Assembly (NCBI RefSeq): GCF_964213995.1
Contig: NC_135810.1
Location: 12,152,001 to 12,216,000, forward strand
Origin: Mustelus asterias
Lineage: Eukaryota
Length of the DNA stretch: 64,000 nt
Direction: 5' to 3'
Under the pieces are notes generated by a model. The model did no database searches. It saw nothing but the letters and a program-made list of their open reading frames with translations, and had not been told where the DNA came from. The position numbers were made by a program, and so were the translations under genes. Positions 4,563 through 64,000 of this stretch are shown piece by piece (the stretch's first letter is position 1; the number at the start of each line of letters is the position of its first letter).

Positions 4563-4927
4563 GTAAATTATCAAATATAAAATATAATCTATTTAATATA
4601 TAGAGACTGGGGTAAAATATAATCCATATAATATATAGAGACTGGGGTAAAATATAATCCATATAATATATAGAGACTGGGGTAAAATATAATCCATATA
4701 ATATAAAATATATAGAGACTGGGGTAAAATATACTCAATATAATATAAAATATAGAGAGACTGGGGTAAAATATACTCAATATAATATAAAATATATAGA
4801 GACTGGCGTAAAATATAATCCATATAATATAAAATATATAGAGACTGGGGTAAAATATAATCCATATATAAAATAGAGAGAGACTGGGGTAAAATATAAT
4901 CAATATAATATAAAATATAGAGAGACT

Positions 4928-5266
4928 GGCGGCACGGTAGCACAATGGTTAACACTGCTGCTTCACAGCTCCAGGGACCTGGATTCGAATCCCAGCTCGG
5001 GTCACTGTCTGTGTGGAGTTTGTACATTCTCCCTGTGTCTGCGTGGGTTTCCTCCGGGTGCTCCAGTTTCCTCCCACAGACCAAACATGTGCGGGTTAGG
5101 TTGATTGGCCATTCTAAATTGCCCCTTAATGTCCTGGGATGCATAGGTTAGAGGGATTAGTGGGCAAAATATGTAGGGATATGGGGATAGGGCCTGGGTG
5201 GGATTGTGGTTGGTGCAGACTCAATGGACCAAATGGCCTCTTTCTGCACAGTAGGATTCTGATTCT
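4928..5266 (+). mobile_element. Full-length HE1-like V-SINE with CR1-type tail (tail A)
   Basis: Head GGCGGCACGGTAGCACAATGGTTAACACTGCTGC, box B-like GGATTCGAATCCC, V-domain, tail ending GATTCTGATTCTG. Confidence 0.85.
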
Positions 5267-5365
5267 GAAAATATACTCAATATAATATAGAATATAGAGA
5301 GACTGGGGTAAAATATAATCTATATACTATAAATGTAGAGACTGGGGTAAAATATAATCAATATA

Positions 5366-5605
5366 GTCATAGACGTTTACAGCATGGAAACAGGCCCTTT
5401 GGCCCAACTTGTCCATGCTGCCCAGTTTTTTAGCATTAAGCTAGTCCCAATTGCCTGTGTTTGGCCCATGTCCCTCCATACCAATCTTATCCATGTAACT
5501 GTTTAAATGCTTTTTAAAAGATAAAATTGTACCTGTCTCTGCTACAGCCTCTGGCAGCCCGTTCCAGACACTTACCACCCTCTGTGCGAAAAAATTGCCC
5601 CACAT
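5366..5605 (-). mobile_element. CR1 LINE 3' fragment
   Basis: Minus-strand NFFAQRVVSVWNGLPEAVAE motif typical of the CR1 ORF2 C-terminus. Confidence 0.75.
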
Positions 5606-6356
5606 AATGTAAAGAGAGAGAGACTGGGGTAAAATATAATCAGTATAGAGACTAGGCTGAAGTATAATCAATATGGAGTAATATATAGAGATGGGTAATT
5701 TTACAGTAACCAGCAATGATGCAGTTCCTGGGGCACTACAGTTTGCACAACTTGCTTGGGCTAAGTAGTACTTCAAGGATATCTAATTAACAGGATGTAT
5801 AAAAAAAGATCGTTTACATCAATAAGGATCAACCTAAACAATTGACCAATAAAGAGCTGAACCTCTATGTGAGGAAATCAATTAAAATACTTGTTTCATT
5901 TATTTAACTGAAGTCTGCAAATATTTTATCCTTTATTTTTCCAAGCAAACATAAAATCCACAGGCTCCGTTACAAGCTTGTTTCCAAGCTCTCTCTTTGA
6001 GGATGTGCTCCACTTACACACTTCTAACTAAAGCCCTTTTTTTGCAACACTCTTCAATTGAAATTTTCCTTTGTCTATGTGTACTGAAGAACTTTAATTC
6101 AAAAATAGTTAATGTGAGCTGTAATGAAGGAAATCCTTTTTTAAAAAATCTTATTACCTATTATTAATGTAATGCTAATGGATTACTGGAGAAGAAGTGC
6201 TATCATTTATATGTGCATTTAAGTAGAAAAATGTCCCAAAGTGCTTCATAGAAGCAAAGAAAACTCATTTAAGTATTTTTTTTTCCTGTAGATTCTTGTA
6301 TCCCAATGATAACCAACTGGACGTGGAAAAGTATTGCATACTGTTAAGAAAGAGTA

Positions 6357-13885: not shown

Positions 13886-14906
13886 TGGCCCCGATTCTCG
13901 CATCACGACCCGCAAATTTTCTGGTGGGTCAAGGTGGGAGATGCGGGTCGCTGGCCTTGAACCGGGATTTACGCATGTGCCAGGAGCACATGCGCATCTC
14001 CCAGAGCCAGTGAACAGTCGCTGGTCAGATCACGCTGGAAACCGGCGGGAAGGCGGGTAAGTAATTTAAATATTTTTTAAAATGTATTTTAAATATGTTT
14101 ATTAGTTCACTAGCAGGAGACCCCACCGGAATGAAGGGGGTGGGCAATCAGGGGGCCCCCCAGGGTGTCGGGCGGCAGGCGAGTGGTGTCCCCTGGGCAT
14201 GGGCACCCCGGCAGTGCCAGCCTGTGCCCCCTGGCACTGCCCATGGGGCAAAGTGCCCATGCCCAGCGGGCCCTTGGGCACCTTGGAACTGCCCATCGGG
14301 CATTGAGCAGTGCCAAAGGGCAGGGCCTATTGTGGGCAGGGCCTGGGGTGATCAGTGGGGGTGAGGGATTCTGCTGCCACTCTGCAGACAGGATCGGTCT
14401 GGGGTGAAGGGAGGGCAGCGATTGACGGGGGGGGGTAGTCTGTTGGGGTGTGAGGGGAGGGGGGGGCTGCCACCGGGAGTTGGGGGGGGGAGAGGGGGGA
14501 ATTGCCACTGTTGGGGGTGGGGGGGGGGGGAGGGCTGTACATCAGGCATCAGGGCGCTCTGGGATGGGGGCGGTCAGGGTTAACCCAGAAATTGTTGTGG
14601 GGGGCCGCGATTGGGCCGTGGAGGGGGCTGGAGGGGCAGCACTGCGGGAGTCTTGGGCTGGCCAGCAAATGGGGAGACTGACAGATCGGGGCCATTGTGC
14701 ATGCACAGATTTCCAGAGCTGTCAGACTCCGGTGCGAATGGACCCCGCCACCCCCCCCCCCCCCCCCCCGGTTTTAATGATATTCATGACTGGGACCTCT
14801 GCATTGCTCAGAGTGCGGAGATTCAGATGAGAAGCTGAACTGACAAAACAGTTGGGATTTAGAACAGTTTTCCCGCTGATTCAGCATTTTTGGGAGAATC
14901 GCCCCC
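13886..14906. mobile_element. GC-rich non-autonomous TIR element with long G/C runs
   Basis: Ends GGCCCCGATTCTCGC ... GGGAGAATCGCCCC are imperfect inverted repeats; sharp compositional boundary with the AT-rich intron. Confidence 0.55.
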
Positions 14907-15116
14907 TGTAGTTCTGGTATTTGCAGTGGAGCCACTGTGCAATGCACATGGACACTTGCTGTAAGTTATTGTCACTACAGTGGCCAAGGAGGAAGGGAAG
15001 CCCTGTTTGATTTTCTCAATGTTGCTGCAAGGTAAAATCTGTGCTACAAATATCTTTTTTCTTAGCTGTGCTGCAAATTTTAATATTACACCAATGAAGT
15101 TTATTTCTGTGTTCAG

Positions 15117-29914: not shown

Positions 29915-30708
29915 AACCTTTGCAGGCCTTCTAGAAATTTCAACCTTCAACAGGTACTTGGGTCCCGTGTACAAGAATCTAACCCGGTATACAAAAGGAA
30001 TGACAATTTTTTTTAAATTGCAAACTCTTGAGCCTCATGTATGATTTTTTTCTCTTCCTGGTTTGTTCCACTCACCTCTGCATGTTATTCTACAACCAAG
30101 CCTGACCACCCCTGACTGCACCCTACAGTTCATGAGAAGGGAGCTATCCTCTTTAAATTAGCTGGGGTTGGAAGCTGCTTCTATATTGCAAAATAACTGC
30201 TCTATTTTGGATGCAGAAGTGACAGTTGGTCAGAAAACAATGCTCCAACAAGCAATTGGAATCTATTGCTTTGGAAACTTTATTGAAAGTTAAATGTTAG
30301 AAGTTTAATTCTTCTCCCAACTGCAATCATTGAAAATAATGTTGAGAAGTGGATGCACTAGCAATGCCACATTTATTATCCATCCTTATTTGCAATAAAT
30401 GCAATGAGTAAAGCATAAGTGTAGGTCAGGAGTCACATAGGGAAGATCAAGGAGAAAACCATGTTTTATGACTGGCAATACTCAGTTATTTTATGTTAGT
30501 GCTGGCTCTCAAATCACCAGCTTTAATAGATTCACTTTCCAAATTTTGTCAAGATGGTATCTGAACAGAACCTGGCTTGTTGGTTGGGTCCCTGACCTAC
30601 TGGCTACCATACCCTGATGTGGAGATGCCGGCGTTGGACTGGGGTAAACACAGTAAGAGTTTTAACAACAACAGGTTAAAGTCCAACAGGTTTATTTGGT
30701 AGCAAATG

Positions 30709-30745
30709 CCATTAGCTTTCGGAGCGCTGCTCCTTCGTCAGATGG
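30709..30745 (-). ncRNA. Minimal type I hammerhead ribozyme motif with intact core
   Basis: CCAU-CUGACGA-A-GGAGC(AGC)GCUCC-GAA-AGCU-A-AUGG: stem I, core, stem II, palindromic stem III. Confidence 0.75.
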
Positions 30746-30770
30746 AATGGATATCTGGCAGATATTCATT

Positions 30771-30807
30771 CCATCTGACAAAGGAGCAGCACTCCGAAAG
30801 CTAATGG
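30771..30807 (+). ncRNA. Mutated hammerhead motif (G8 to A, stem II mismatch)
   Basis: CCAT-CTGACAA-A-GGAGCAGCACTCC-GAA-AGCT-A-ATGG; two CG to CA changes relative to the minus-strand copy. Confidence 0.6.
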
Positions 30808-32194
30808 CATTTACTACCAAATGTTGGACTTTAACCTGGTGCTGTTAAAATTCTTACTGTGTTTACCATACCCTGTCCATAATGATTGTTCTCACAGGAA
30901 TGAAGGCACACTGAGTATTAATGTAACTGAAAACAACACGTTTACACAAATTGTAGCAGGCAGGAAAGGTCGCTAGGCATGGACTGGGGTATGATATTCA
31001 GAAGTGGGTGCTTGACAGCCTTGCTGATGAAGGGGTGAAGGATGCAGATGCCAGGATTAGAAGAGATACAAGACTAGCAAACTCAGAGCTGGATGAGATT
31101 CCAAATTTGGGAGGGTAAAAGTTGTGGATGACTTGTGAATCAGGATTTTGAATTCAACGCACTGACAAACAAGGAGCAATTGGTCAAGGTAGAGGTATTG
31201 GCAGATTTGGACAGGATATCAGTGATTGCCCCTTTTACTATGATTGTTTTGGAGTTTATAGTGAGGAGTGTTGGAAAAGTTCAAACTGATGACAACAAAG
31301 GCTTATGCAGTAAGAGTGACTAGTGCCACACAGGATGTGTGGTTCGAATGCCAAACAGCACAAGATTGCACACTGAGAAATGGGTTCAGAAATCACCAAA
31401 GTTTCTTTCCAGGGGTCAGTTTTTGAAGACCTAGAGATAAGGAATTTATGAGAATTTGTAGAAAATTAACATCTCTGCTTTATAGCCGAAGCACTGTACA
31501 GCCAATGAAGTACCTTTGAAGTCTAGTCATTATAACTTAGGAAGTATAATATGTGTGTGTGTGTTCGGAAAGCTAAGGTTATCATGTATGCAAATTGAGA
31601 TTCCCCCAAGCTACAGGATTATCTAAACCAGTAAATGTAGAAACAGCATATTTGAGTAGTCTGAAGTGTTCCACAGCCAGAGAGAGATTGTTCCTGTTGG
31701 GATATTTTTTCTAATACAAAATGATCAGAGATCTTGCCCTGCACTTGCAAACCAAGTCCCACTCTCCCTCCCCAGACAACAACTATTGTGGCTGGGAAAT
31801 TGGCTGAGACAGATCTACATCCAGGTGGCAATTCATACAATCCTTTAATTTGTGTACTCCACCCCCACCTATAAACTACCACAAATGTTTGGAAAACTTT
31901 TCAGACTGCATACTGAAGTACTACACTACTAAAGGAAAACAAAGACATTTTGTGAAAGAATGATTAAAGTCAGTTTTCATTGCTATTTTAACAAATTGAT
32001 TTTTCCACATATAGTATTTTTCAAAGGAGAAACAAGTGGAAAACTGGGCTTGAACTTGAGCCAAATGCTCCGCTTACATTGTCGAACATTAAGTATTGAG
32101 AGACAGTTGAAACTCTGCTTTTAGTAAATAATACTTTTGAAGTGTGTCCAGCACTAGCTTTTGATCAATGACTTTAGCCATCAAGGGACTGACA

Positions 32195-60322: not shown

Positions 60323-60598
60323 CTGGTGAAGCACCACGTTGGTGTCCGGCAGCACATAGTGAGGCTCCGGACACAGCTGGCTGGAGGTGTGGGGCTGGTC
60401 AGTGAGGCGGCCGCAGCCGGGCCTGGGCCTGGAGTTGGGGCTGAGCTCCGCTCCCGGTGCTCCCCCGGCCGCCGAGCCCCTGCACTCCTCGCACGGAGCC
60501 CAGCCGCACAAGATGTCGTCCCGCAGGTAATGCTCCCTCACCACCTTCAGCACGCCGCCCGAGCGCGTCTTCTTGATGAAACTCTTGGACTTTAACAT
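60323..60598 (-). CDS. DIS3: DIS3 (exosome catalytic subunit RRP44) exon 1
   Basis: MLKSKSFIKKTRSGGVLKVVREHYLRDDILCGWAPCEEC...HYVLPDTNVVLHQ with CR3 cysteines and the PIN PDTN motif; donor GTAAAG; the 21 exons join in frame to 2925 nt (974 aa). Confidence 0.97.
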
Positions 60599-60790
60599 CC
60601 CTCCCCCGCCGCCTCTCCCGCCTTCCCAACCGAAACAAAATTCAAAACTTTAAATCCAACCGCCGCCAACTGCACCGGCCCCGGGAGAGGAAAGACTGTC
60701 AACCCGGGTGGCCGACTGAAAGCCTACAGTTCACCCCCTCCCTTACTGTCAAACACCCAAACAACACTCAACTCAGAACTAAGTAAATCC
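60599..60790. promoter_or_regulatory. CpG-rich DIS3 5' UTR and promoter, possibly bidirectional with PIBF1
   Basis: GC/CpG-rich sequence upstream of the ATG; human DIS3 is head-to-head with PIBF1, but no PIBF1 coding exon is seen in this window. Confidence 0.5.
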
Positions 60791-61020
60791 CCTTTCTCCC
60801 CATCATTTCCCCCCAAGCGTGCAAAAATACATTTTTAAAAAGCGGGAAAACCAGCTCAAATTGGTCAAAAGACCTAGTTTTTTCTTAAATCAGGAAGACT
60901 GGAGTCCCATTAAGGTTTACAAGCCCATTTCGGATAACTTTTACTGGTATCCCTTAAGTCAGATAGGTTTTACTCGTATCACTTAAGTTTTGGACCATTT
61001 TGGATAAGTTTTCCTGGTAT

Positions 61021-61346
61021 TCCCTACAGTGCAGAAGGAGGCCATTCGCCACATTGAATCTGCACCGACAACAATCCCACCCAGGCCCTATCTCCACAAC
61101 CCCACACATTTACCAAGGCGAATCCCTCTAACCTACACATTCTGGGACACTAAGGGGCAATTTAGCATAGCCAATCAACCTAAGCTGCACATCTTTGGAG
61201 TGTGGGAGGAAACCGGAGCACCCGGAGGAAACCCACACAAAGGGAGAATGTGCAAACTCCACACAGACAGTGACCCTAGCCGGGAATCGAACCCAGGTCC
61301 CTGGAGCTGTGAGGTAGCAGTACTAACCACTGTGCTACCATGCAGC
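61021..61346 (-). mobile_element. HE1-like V-SINE in the left palindrome arm
   Basis: Head, V-domain and tail A. Confidence 0.88.
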
Positions 61347-61627
61347 CCAGGTTCCTTAGGTTTTAGACCATTTCAGTTAAGTTTTACCAGTATGCCTTAA
61401 GCTTTAGACCATTCCGGATAGATTTTACCATGATTCCTAAAGTTTTAGCCCATTTTGGATGCATTCTACCAGTATTCCTTAAACCTAAAACTTAAGGAAT
61501 ACTGGTAAAATGCATCCAAAATGGTCTAAAACTTTAGGAATCACGGTAAAATCTATCCGGAATGGTCTAAAGCTTAAGGCATACTGGTAAAACTTAACTG
61601 AAATGGTCTAAAACCTAAGGAACCTGG

Positions 61628-61960
61628 GCTGCATGGTAGCACAGTGGTTAGTACTGCTACCTCACAGCTTCAGGGAGGGACCTGGGTTCGATTCCCGGCT
61701 TGGGTCACTGTCTGTGTGGAGTTTGTACATTCTCCCTTTGTCTGCGTGGGTTTCCTCCAGGTGCTCTGGTTTCCTCCCACACTCCAAAGATGTGCAGCTT
61801 AGGTTGATTGGCTATGCTAAATTGCCCCTTAGTGTCCCAGAATGTGTAGGTTAGAGGGATTCGCCTTGGTAAATGTGTGGGGTTGTGGAGATAGGGCCTG
61901 AGTGGGATTGTTGTCGGTGCAGATTCAATGTGGCGAATGGCCTCCTTCTGCACTGTAGGG
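61628..61960 (+). mobile_element. HE1-like V-SINE in the right arm (inverted duplicate of 61021-61346)
   Basis: Shares flanking satellite sequence and private variants with the left copy. Confidence 0.88.
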
Positions 61961-62476
61961 ATTTCATGAATACCAGGAAAACTTATCCAAAATGGTCCAA
62001 AACTTAAGTGATACGAGTAAAACCTATCCAAAATGGTCTAAGACATAAACGATACAAGTAAAATTTATCCAAAATGGTCTTTAGGGGAAAGAGGTAAACC
62101 CATCCTAAATGGTTTAAAACTTACTTCTTTCCCCTAAGACCATTTTGGATAAATTTTACTTGTATCGTTTATGTCTTAGACCATTTTGGATAGGTTTTAC
62201 TAGTATCGCTTAAGTTTTGGACCATTTTGGATACGTTTTACCAATATGCCTTAAGTTATAGACCATTTCAGGTAAGTTTTACTGGCATCCCTTAAGTTTT
62301 GCTGCCCTCCCTGAGAAGATAATAGACGATAGCCAGAAAAATGTTGTTGAATTGGATCAGCTATGCTCTTATTGAATGGCGGAGCAGGCTCACAGTGTGA
62401 AATGGATGCTGTTAATTCATATTGTTGCATGTATGGCCCCTTTTGACAGCTTATCTCAACAAACAGCATGGCATTA

Positions 62477-63320
62477 TGATGATACCACCGCAGTGGGTTG
62501 GATCTCAAACAACGATGAAACAGAGTACAGAAAGGGAAAGAGAATCTGGTGAAAAAAATGCAACGACAATAATCTCTCCCACAATGTCAATACGATGAAG
62601 GAGATGGTCATCGACTTCAGGAAGCGTAGTGGAGAACAGGCCCCTGTTTACATCAACAGGGATGAAGTAGAAATGGCCAGGAGAGCTTCAAGTTTCTAGG
62701 TGTCCAGATCACCAACAATTTGTCCTGGTCCCTCCGTGCTGATGCCATCATTAAGAAGCCCACCAATGCCTCTACTTTCTCAGAAGGCTTAGGAAATTCG
62801 GCATGTCCACTGTGCCTCTCACCAATTTTTACAGATGCACCACAGAAAGCATCCTTTCCGGATGTATCACAGCTTGGTATGGCTCCTGCTCCAACCAAGA
62901 CCGCAGGAAACCACAAAAGATTTAAACGAAGTCCAGTCCATCACACAAACCAGCCTCCCATCCATTGACTCTGTCTACACTTCCCGCTGCCTCAGAAAAG
63001 CAGCCAGCATAATCAAGAATCCCAGATATACTCCTTTTCACCTTCTTCTGTCGGGAAAAAGATACTAAAGTCTGAGGTCATGTACCAACCGACTCGAGAA
63101 CAGCTTCTTCCCTGCTGCCATCAGACTTTTGAATGGACCTACCTTATATTAAGTTGATCTTTCTCTACATACTAGCTATGACTGTAACACTACATTCTAC
63201 ACTCTCTCCTTTCCTTCAACCCTATCTACTCTATGAATGGTAGGCTTTGTATAGCGCACAAGAAATAATACTTTTCACTGTGTATCATTACATGTGACAA
63301 TAAATCAAATCAAAAAAAGA
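62477..63320 (+). mobile_element. Rex1/Babar-like LINE, 5'-truncated
   Basis: Homologous to 24905-25750; TQTSLPSIDSVYTSRCLRKAASIIK; tail CAATAAATCAAATCAAAAAAA. Confidence 0.82.
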
Positions 63321-63431
63321 GTTCAAATTGGTCAAAAGCCCTAGTATTTTTTTAATTAGTAAGACTGGAGTTCCATTTTAATGTTTACGTGAACATTTCA
63401 ATGCAGAAGTCATTGATAGTGGCAGGACAGA

Positions 63432-63718
63432 TCATAGAATCCCTACAGTGCAGAAGGAGGCCGTTCAACCCATCAAGTCTGCACCGATCACAATCCCACA
63501 TGTTGACCCTGTTAATCCCCTAACACTAGGGTCAATTTAGCATAGCCAATCAACTTAACCCAAGCATCTTTGGATTGTGGGAGGAAACCGGAGCACCCGG
63601 AGGAAACCCACACAGACACATGGAGAACGTGCAAACTCCACACAGGGACCCAAAGCCGGAATTGAACCCAGGTCCCTAGAGCTGTGAGGCAGCAGTGCTA
63701 ACCACTGTGCCGCCATGC
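63432..63718 (-). mobile_element. HE1-like V-SINE, tail A
   Basis: Head, V-domain and CR1-type tail. Confidence 0.85.
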
Positions 63719-63719
63719 A

Positions 63720-64000
63720 GAGTGGTTTAGAAAAGCATAAAGTATTCTAGGCTTTATTAATAGGGGCATGGAGTTCAAGAGCAAGGAGGTTGTATAAGAC
63801 TTTCGTTCAGCCTAAGCTGGAGTATTGTGTCCAGTTCTGGACTGTGCACTTTTTGAAGGATGTGAAGGCACCAGAGTGAGTGCAGAAAAGATTCCAAGGA
63901 TGAGGAACTTCAGTTTATGTAGAGAGATTTGGGAAATGGGATATTTTCCTTGGAGAAGAGTAGATTGAGATACGATTTGACGAAGGTATTCAAAATCCTC
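63720..64000 (+). mobile_element. CR1 LINE fragment continuing beyond the window
   Basis: YKTFVQPKLEYCVQFW-like motif. Confidence 0.7.

Follow-up and report, generated by a model that had tools for sequence, protein, structure and literature searches.

The question raised by this locus is how a near-perfect palindrome of more than one kilobase came to lie, and to persist, just upstream of the start codon of DIS3 in the shark Mustelus asterias. We addressed it in a window of 64,000 nucleotides of contig NC_135810.1; positions beyond its end are given as window-equivalents. The two arms of the palindrome (60962-61482, plus strand, 521 nt, and 61492-62028, minus strand, 537 nt) are reverse complements around ACCTAAAAC (61483-61491, 9 nt), with 512 of 521 aligned positions identical. 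The nine substitutions between the arms comprise seven transitions, and three of the nine lie at CpG (the third by inference); three indels of 8, 4 and 4 nt complete the differences. The left arm consists of 41-bp units interrupted by a SINE, and it begins 364 bp from the ATG (60598-60596) of DIS3 coding exon 1 (60323-60598, minus strand; phmmer to human RRP44/DIS3, E 3.8e-20; donor score 8.4). The original prediction, made from the sequence alone, had described the arms and their 9-nt spacer, a position about 360 bp upstream of the DIS3 start, the same SINE at the same place within a 41-bp unit in both arms, and scattered substitutions (several at CpG) with small indels, and in all these respects it was accurate. 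Folded as single-stranded DNA, 60921-62310 as a whole has a predicted energy of −733 kcal/mol, a value that stands without a shuffle control at that length, and forms one long hairpin and a second hairpin.

The second hairpin corresponds to a further fold-back that had gone unnoticed, 620 bp to the right of the main one, and the main palindrome is one half of a larger direct/inverted/direct structure. Specifically, a left arm (61978-62097, minus strand) and a right arm (62121-62239, plus strand) pair at 115 of 119 positions across a 23-nt loop (62098-62120), with the centre near 62109. The 41-bp units run in direct order up to 61482, are inverted from 61483 to 62120, a middle segment that includes the right arm of the main palindrome, and are direct again from 62121 to 62300. 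Each inversion junction is bounded by a 4-nt microhomology, TTAA/TTAA around the 9 nt of the first and GTAA/TTAC around the 23 nt of the second, and TTAA occupies the same unit position in five of the seven units examined. The unit sequence of the middle segment runs on, in register, through both loops (through the first when read on the minus strand), so both flanking arms look like copies of that segment. The copies are unequal: 521 and 120 bp flank a middle of about 640 bp, and only 50 bp are triplicated, this core being present three times (identities 50/50 and 47/50; third copy at 62189-62238). The divergences at the two junctions (9/521 versus 4/119) make their ages indistinguishable (Fisher p 0.28).

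The origin of the units themselves can be traced. Together they form a local minisatellite with about 16-18 units, full and partial ones counted alike. Among the matches listed for a 271-bp array query against the 3.68-Gb genome, this locus was the only one (a lower bound), and a 22-nt unit pattern with two mismatches allowed gave 23 matches versus 12 in the control, 10 of the 23 at this locus. The genome-wide search for the unit thus yielded one local array, and not the long or numerous arrays across the genome that define satellite DNA, the class to which the unit had been assigned. Eight of the ten outside matches inspected are single units within a dispersed element of about 140 bp, whose core motif has 298 genome matches against none in the control (two subfamilies together). 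Among 20 element copies (of 22 picked by their 5' end), 18 carry a 3' terminal repeat (CCCAGAAGG...CCTTCTGGG), and 11 of these 18 are flanked by a 2-bp target-site duplication (p 1e-9 against 1/16); nearly all of the copies with these features belong to the sister subfamily. Judged by these sequence features, the dispersed element is a non-autonomous DNA transposon with terminal inverted repeats.

A decayed copy of this transposon frames the array. Its 5' part lies at 60844-60960 on the plus strand (nhmmer E 2.9e-10 with a profile built from 18 other copies; alignment score 85 versus a shuffle maximum of 36), and the interior of the element is the source of the 41-bp unit. The last direct units and the decayed 3' part follow at 62240-62310, also on the plus strand (alignment score 44-47 versus a shuffle maximum of 27-33), with a terminal repeat that is no longer recognisable. 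The two parts flank the array, 5' on the left and 3' on the right, and share one orientation, which places all of the units within a single decayed copy; neither of its termini is still intact. Tandem expansion of the element interior was seen at 2 of 56 other element loci. A second decayed copy of the 5' part (63314-63400, plus strand) shares private features with the copy at 60844, a probable sign of an older local duplication. No head-to-head fold-back of this transposon family was matched elsewhere by the exact junction pattern, a search that gives a lower bound; one of 56 element loci has both motif orientations within 300 bp and was discounted, as it sits inside a palindrome of the Penelope type discussed below. 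As a separate observation, the genome holds a family of tiny non-autonomous transposons of 54-190 bp with CCCAGAAGG termini, a 2-bp target duplication and a variable count of 63-bp internal units. The CCC ends and 2-bp duplication seem to us reminiscent of animal EnSpm elements, a resemblance that we take as a lead only. EnSpm/CMC elements are described as having mostly CA..TG ends and 2-5-bp duplications (PMC12730594). No paper on elements with CCC ends and 2-bp duplications was found in the literature searched.

The SINE dates the fold-back relative to the other events. The copy in the right arm (61626-61970, plus strand) is of tRNA type, with A- and B-box-like motifs at its 5' end, and is presumably HE1-like; the copy in the left arm (61021-61348, minus strand) lacks the 8-nt tail and four internal nucleotides. 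In the loci sampled, the right-arm SINE has 61 other matches. At 18 positions the SINEs of both arms agree with each other and differ from 55 other aligned copies, the best of which is 88% identical. The two copies have a single origin, and these 18 shared diagnostic positions support the earlier proposal that the fold-back duplication followed the SINE insertion. Both arms have since changed: of the six SINE substitutions between them, the right copy has the derived state at five and the left copy at one; of the three unit substitutions, two arose on the left, as the third probably did; and the left arm lost 8 and 4 nt while the right arm gained 4 nt by duplication. This independent decay argues for an old duplication and not a chimeric read, as had been suggested from the differences between the arms. 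The arm divergence of 1.7% (CI 0.8-3.3%) would correspond to about 12 million generations at a rate of 7e-10 (range 6-62 million); because that rate comes from another species and CpG sites change faster, we claim only that the structure is old.

Two other accounts of the near-identical arms must be weighed here. The junctions come from the assembly, in which an artefact is unlikely on several grounds. A chimeric fold-back read would give identical arms, whereas these differ by nine substitutions and three indels of 4-8 nt that are polarised to both arms. Two haplotypes joined head to head would need to diverge by 1.7%, above the shark values found (0.2%, PMC10587355, and 0.63%, PMC10468316, both from other species); the 9/521 differences have p 1.5e-6 at a diversity of 0.002 and p 0.0065 at 0.0063. 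Furthermore, the locus has two microhomology junctions, 124 kb of sequence hold no N, and DIS3 and PIBF1 exons lie on either side within a 128-Mb contig. Words sampled from the locus (n=162) were compared with sequencing read runs: the best two runs, possibly from the sample used for the assembly, contain 0.71 of them, a value that we do not use as evidence, and among the remaining runs (23 in all) a second organism reaches 0.31-0.32 and the others at most 0.30, probably mostly SINE words. Overall, a chimeric read or a fusion of haplotypes appears very improbable.

Alternatively, the minisatellite could have held an older inversion, whose arms became alike later, through conversion between them or through quasi-palindrome correction. 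The SINE would have been transferred in that step, and the inversion would pre-date it. Quasi-palindrome conversion has been described (PMC7954356), the register of both loops looks as if the flanks had been overwritten from the middle segment, and the right-block units past the 120-bp arm still match the middle at about 82%. This value, however, is also the ordinary unit-to-unit identity. The differences are spread along the arm with no significant patchiness (KS p 0.12), and the numbers of private changes are similar on the two arms, so one copying event suffices. We therefore regard later conversion as a doubtful alternative to a fold-back after the SINE insertion.

The account that we favour, and consider probable, is that template switching during replication left this scar inside a dead transposon long ago, and that the scar is most likely neutral. 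The order of events, rebuilt from one sequence, would be as follows. A small non-autonomous DNA transposon, to which homology is evident, would have landed upstream of DIS3, and its interior would have grown by slippage into the 41-bp minisatellite, one unit of which received the SINE. A nascent strand may then have folded back on 4-nt self-complementary words (TTAA/TTAA and GTAA/TTAC) and copied itself backwards; acting at both ends of one segment of about 640 bp, such switching would generate the direct/inverted/direct order with arms of 521 and 120 bp, either as two events or as one inverted triplication that was later trimmed. The arms would subsequently have decayed independently, with mismatches near the centre lowering cruciform extrusion. 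Perfect inverted repeats are a known product of template switches (PMC7954356). For inverted Alus, one centre-proximal mismatch has been reported to lower instability (PMC10164571), and by analogy the mismatches at 17, 34 and 53 bp from the centre of the main palindrome should reduce extrusion.

Known rearrangements offer close parallels to this template-switching account. The two inversion junctions in direct-inverted-direct order, the sub-kilobase scale and the retention of the original flanks recall small inverted triplications (DUP/IN/DUP; PMC13334657), for which spacers of about 30 bp and 6-bp junctions are reported (PMC13334657 and bioRxiv 2025.01.14.632981). The loops here are 9 and 23 nt versus a median of 30, and the junction microhomology is 4 nt versus a median of 6. 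Those triplications are balanced (148/160/148 median), whereas the flanks here cover 521 and 120 of about 640 bp; moreover, they are somatic or fresh, unlike this germline, aged example within a transposon-derived minisatellite. The locus also resembles the inverted repeats produced by short-range template switches (PMC7954356). Because its flanks are unbalanced, we file it as a template-switch fold-back and not as a canonical single-event triplication. An inverted triplication of the ODIRA type likewise has two fold-back junctions at interrupted short inverted repeats. As we read the ODIRA model, one loop is in register with the direct copy, whereas both loops here follow the middle, so ODIRA would need a later flip of a spacer or two separate events. 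Inverted Alu pairs and PATRRs share the near-identical, SINE-bearing inverted arms and a spacer of less than 12 nt, a configuration that extrudes and breaks in yeast and mammals (PMC7999016 and PMC10164571). By contrast, a single SINE was copied here by fold-back, the GC content is moderate and not AT-rich, and three mismatches lie near the centre.

Mobile elements can also build such structures, and the palindrome had been suggested to be a foldback-type element. Foldback transposons (FB, Galileo, Tetris; PMC4079207) resemble this locus in their long inverted arms, which contain tandem units of DNA-transposon origin, and Penelope-like elements make head-to-head palindromes in this very genome. 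Foldback elements, however, have 8-10-bp target-site duplications, and their copies are dispersed with arm ends that are element ends. The longest duplication flanking the present structure is a shared word of 5 nt, no copy was found elsewhere (lower-bound searches), and the arms end inside 41-bp units beside the parent array and not at transposon termini. Without a target-site duplication or other copies, the suggestion of a foldback-type element finds no support. Inverted pLTR insertions of Penelope-like elements (PMC3846280) are likewise head-to-head and near-perfect, with arms of 250-560 bp and short spacers, but blastn returned no Penelope match at E 0.01 in 60601-63400, and the 10-15-nt duplication flanking 9 of 15 Penelope palindromes is missing. 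The structure evidently arose in place, and an origin as a mobile foldback transposon, or as an inverted insertion driven by Penelope, is extremely unlikely.

The Penelope-derived palindromes bear directly on the matter of persistence. In 40 evenly picked 10-kb stretches we counted 21 palindromes with arms of at least 40 bp and a gap of at most 100, 13 of which match one retroelement with a GIY-YIG domain and with the inverted layout known from Penelope-like elements (PMC3846280). One narrow class of these palindromes, defined by one exact pattern and a 15-nt range of centre positions, has 256 genome sites against none in the control. Among the first 15 of these sites (all on one contig), ten have arms of at least 250 bp and six also combine a spacer of at most 20 nt with at least 97% identity, two with mis-measured spacers being scored as misses. 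A further palindrome met by chance has arms of 325 bp, 98.5% identity and an 11-nt spacer. Because many similar Penelope-derived palindromes exist in the genome, the persistence of the present one, which the original prediction had called unexpected, is unsurprising. Conversely, palindromes of any kind with arms of at least 300 bp, at least 93% identity and a gap of at most 100 were absent from the 400-kb even sample, and about 670 kb scanned yielded no second non-Penelope palindrome of that arm length and identity. This kind is thus rarer than the background suggests, and the palindrome studied here lies at the long end of the size range. Some Penelope palindromes have identical arms and 13-15-bp flanking duplications, and their junctions frequently contain short internal repeats, suggesting several template jumps. 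Within the window, a short palindrome at 30643-30867 (112-bp arms, 88%) has ends resembling the Penelope-type repeat. The literature searched, with most subscription journals outside its scope, yielded no reports about this locus, nor any about palindromes in sharks.

Whether the palindrome acts on its neighbours depends first on where it lies relative to their transcripts. The CpG island at the DIS3 start (60401-60800) ends short of the palindrome, whose own CpG content is low (o/e about 0.2-0.6). PIBF1 has its first coding exon past the window end (window-equivalent 67487-67738, plus strand); the proteins closest to this exon are shark and ray PIBF1, and searches of Pfam, PDB and Atlas returned no PIBF1 name for it. 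The original prediction had placed the palindrome within the first intron of PIBF1. The best splice donor left of the element, however, scores 5.3 bits versus 8.1 and 8.4 for real donors here, and a non-repetitive GC- and CpG-rich region at window-equivalent 64401-65200 contains a donor of 10.5 bits at 65067, which is 2.4 kb short of the first coding exon, together with half an X-box-like motif (a loose X-box scan was uninformative). This region is a candidate for a separate PIBF1 promoter and non-coding first exon ending at donor 65067, and DIS3 and PIBF1, which are divergent, appear to start from promoters of their own, some 4.4 kb from each other. The weak left donor and the strong donor at 65067 suggest that the palindrome is probably intergenic, between the promoters and outside PIBF1 intron 1, and not a pre-mRNA hairpin. 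The top score of all belongs to a donor at 62272 (12.9 bits) inside one of the 41-bp units; we discounted it as part of the repeat, although it may still be a used site.

For the regulatory hairpin and the fragile site proposed in the original prediction, the sequence spoke neither for nor against. Had it been retained for a function, the palindrome might form a cruciform, to take up negative supercoils or to insulate the promoters of DIS3 and PIBF1 from each other, or upstream antisense transcription might turn it into long dsRNA. Its location between two divergent genes, 364 bp away from the ATG of DIS3, and the very stable single-strand hairpin are in keeping with such a role, as is the occurrence of three of the nine substitutions at most 55 bp from the centre (p 0.06, post hoc), a clustering that is absent from the 15 Penelope palindromes (2 of 46 mismatches in the inner fifth, in a search that forced exact inner words) and that we do not claim. 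Against this, the sequence is wholly transposon-derived, CpG-poor and outside the island, its arms are decaying, and similar palindromes occupy many ordinary sites; a functional element therefore seems to us hardly probable. Just as improbable is a stronger version, in which the genome would tolerate thousands of near-perfect short-spacer palindromes, a kind that breaks chromosomes in yeast and mammals, and the main one, sited where two divergent promoters build negative supercoils, would have been kept, and tuned by its centre-proximal mismatches, as a cruciform sink or insulator separating the two promoters. Neutrality, 360 bp from a start codon, is argued from the absence of evidence for function and is the most likely state.

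The locus thus most likely adds one more case to a known kind of rearrangement, so far without any sign of function: the fossil of a mutational process in which a transposon, a minisatellite and a SINE were followed by fold-back at self-complementary words. It can serve to illustrate that process, and it marks a candidate fragile or polymorphic site next to DIS3, but it is not a new system. The wider point may matter more, namely this genome's wealth of near-perfect, Penelope-derived palindromes with arms of 250-560 bp, which makes sharks suited to testing how far vertebrate genomes tolerate such structures. One of them, about 35 kb to the right of the main palindrome, has 559-bp arms at 98.0% identity and a 42-nt spacer, with an apparent 12-bp flanking duplication that was seen by eye and that the script did not recover; should it lie in an intron of PIBF1, whose exons could be traced to window-equivalent 91.5 kb, it would be a better candidate for long dsRNA than the main palindrome.

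Other repeats and islands were observed in passing. The candidate PIBF1 promoter island contains, by eye, a GC-rich tandem repeat of about 40 bp (window-equivalent 64540-64950). Between the array and the second transposon copy lies a fragment of a dispersed LINE-like repeat (about 62440-63312; 79% over 436 bp to another locus), and a third, independent SINE copy follows at 63432-63720. Farther to the left, 4578-5678 consists of AT-rich tandem repeats with periods of 28-42 bp, and 14001-15000 is a GC-rich island (GC 0.60), possibly another promoter.
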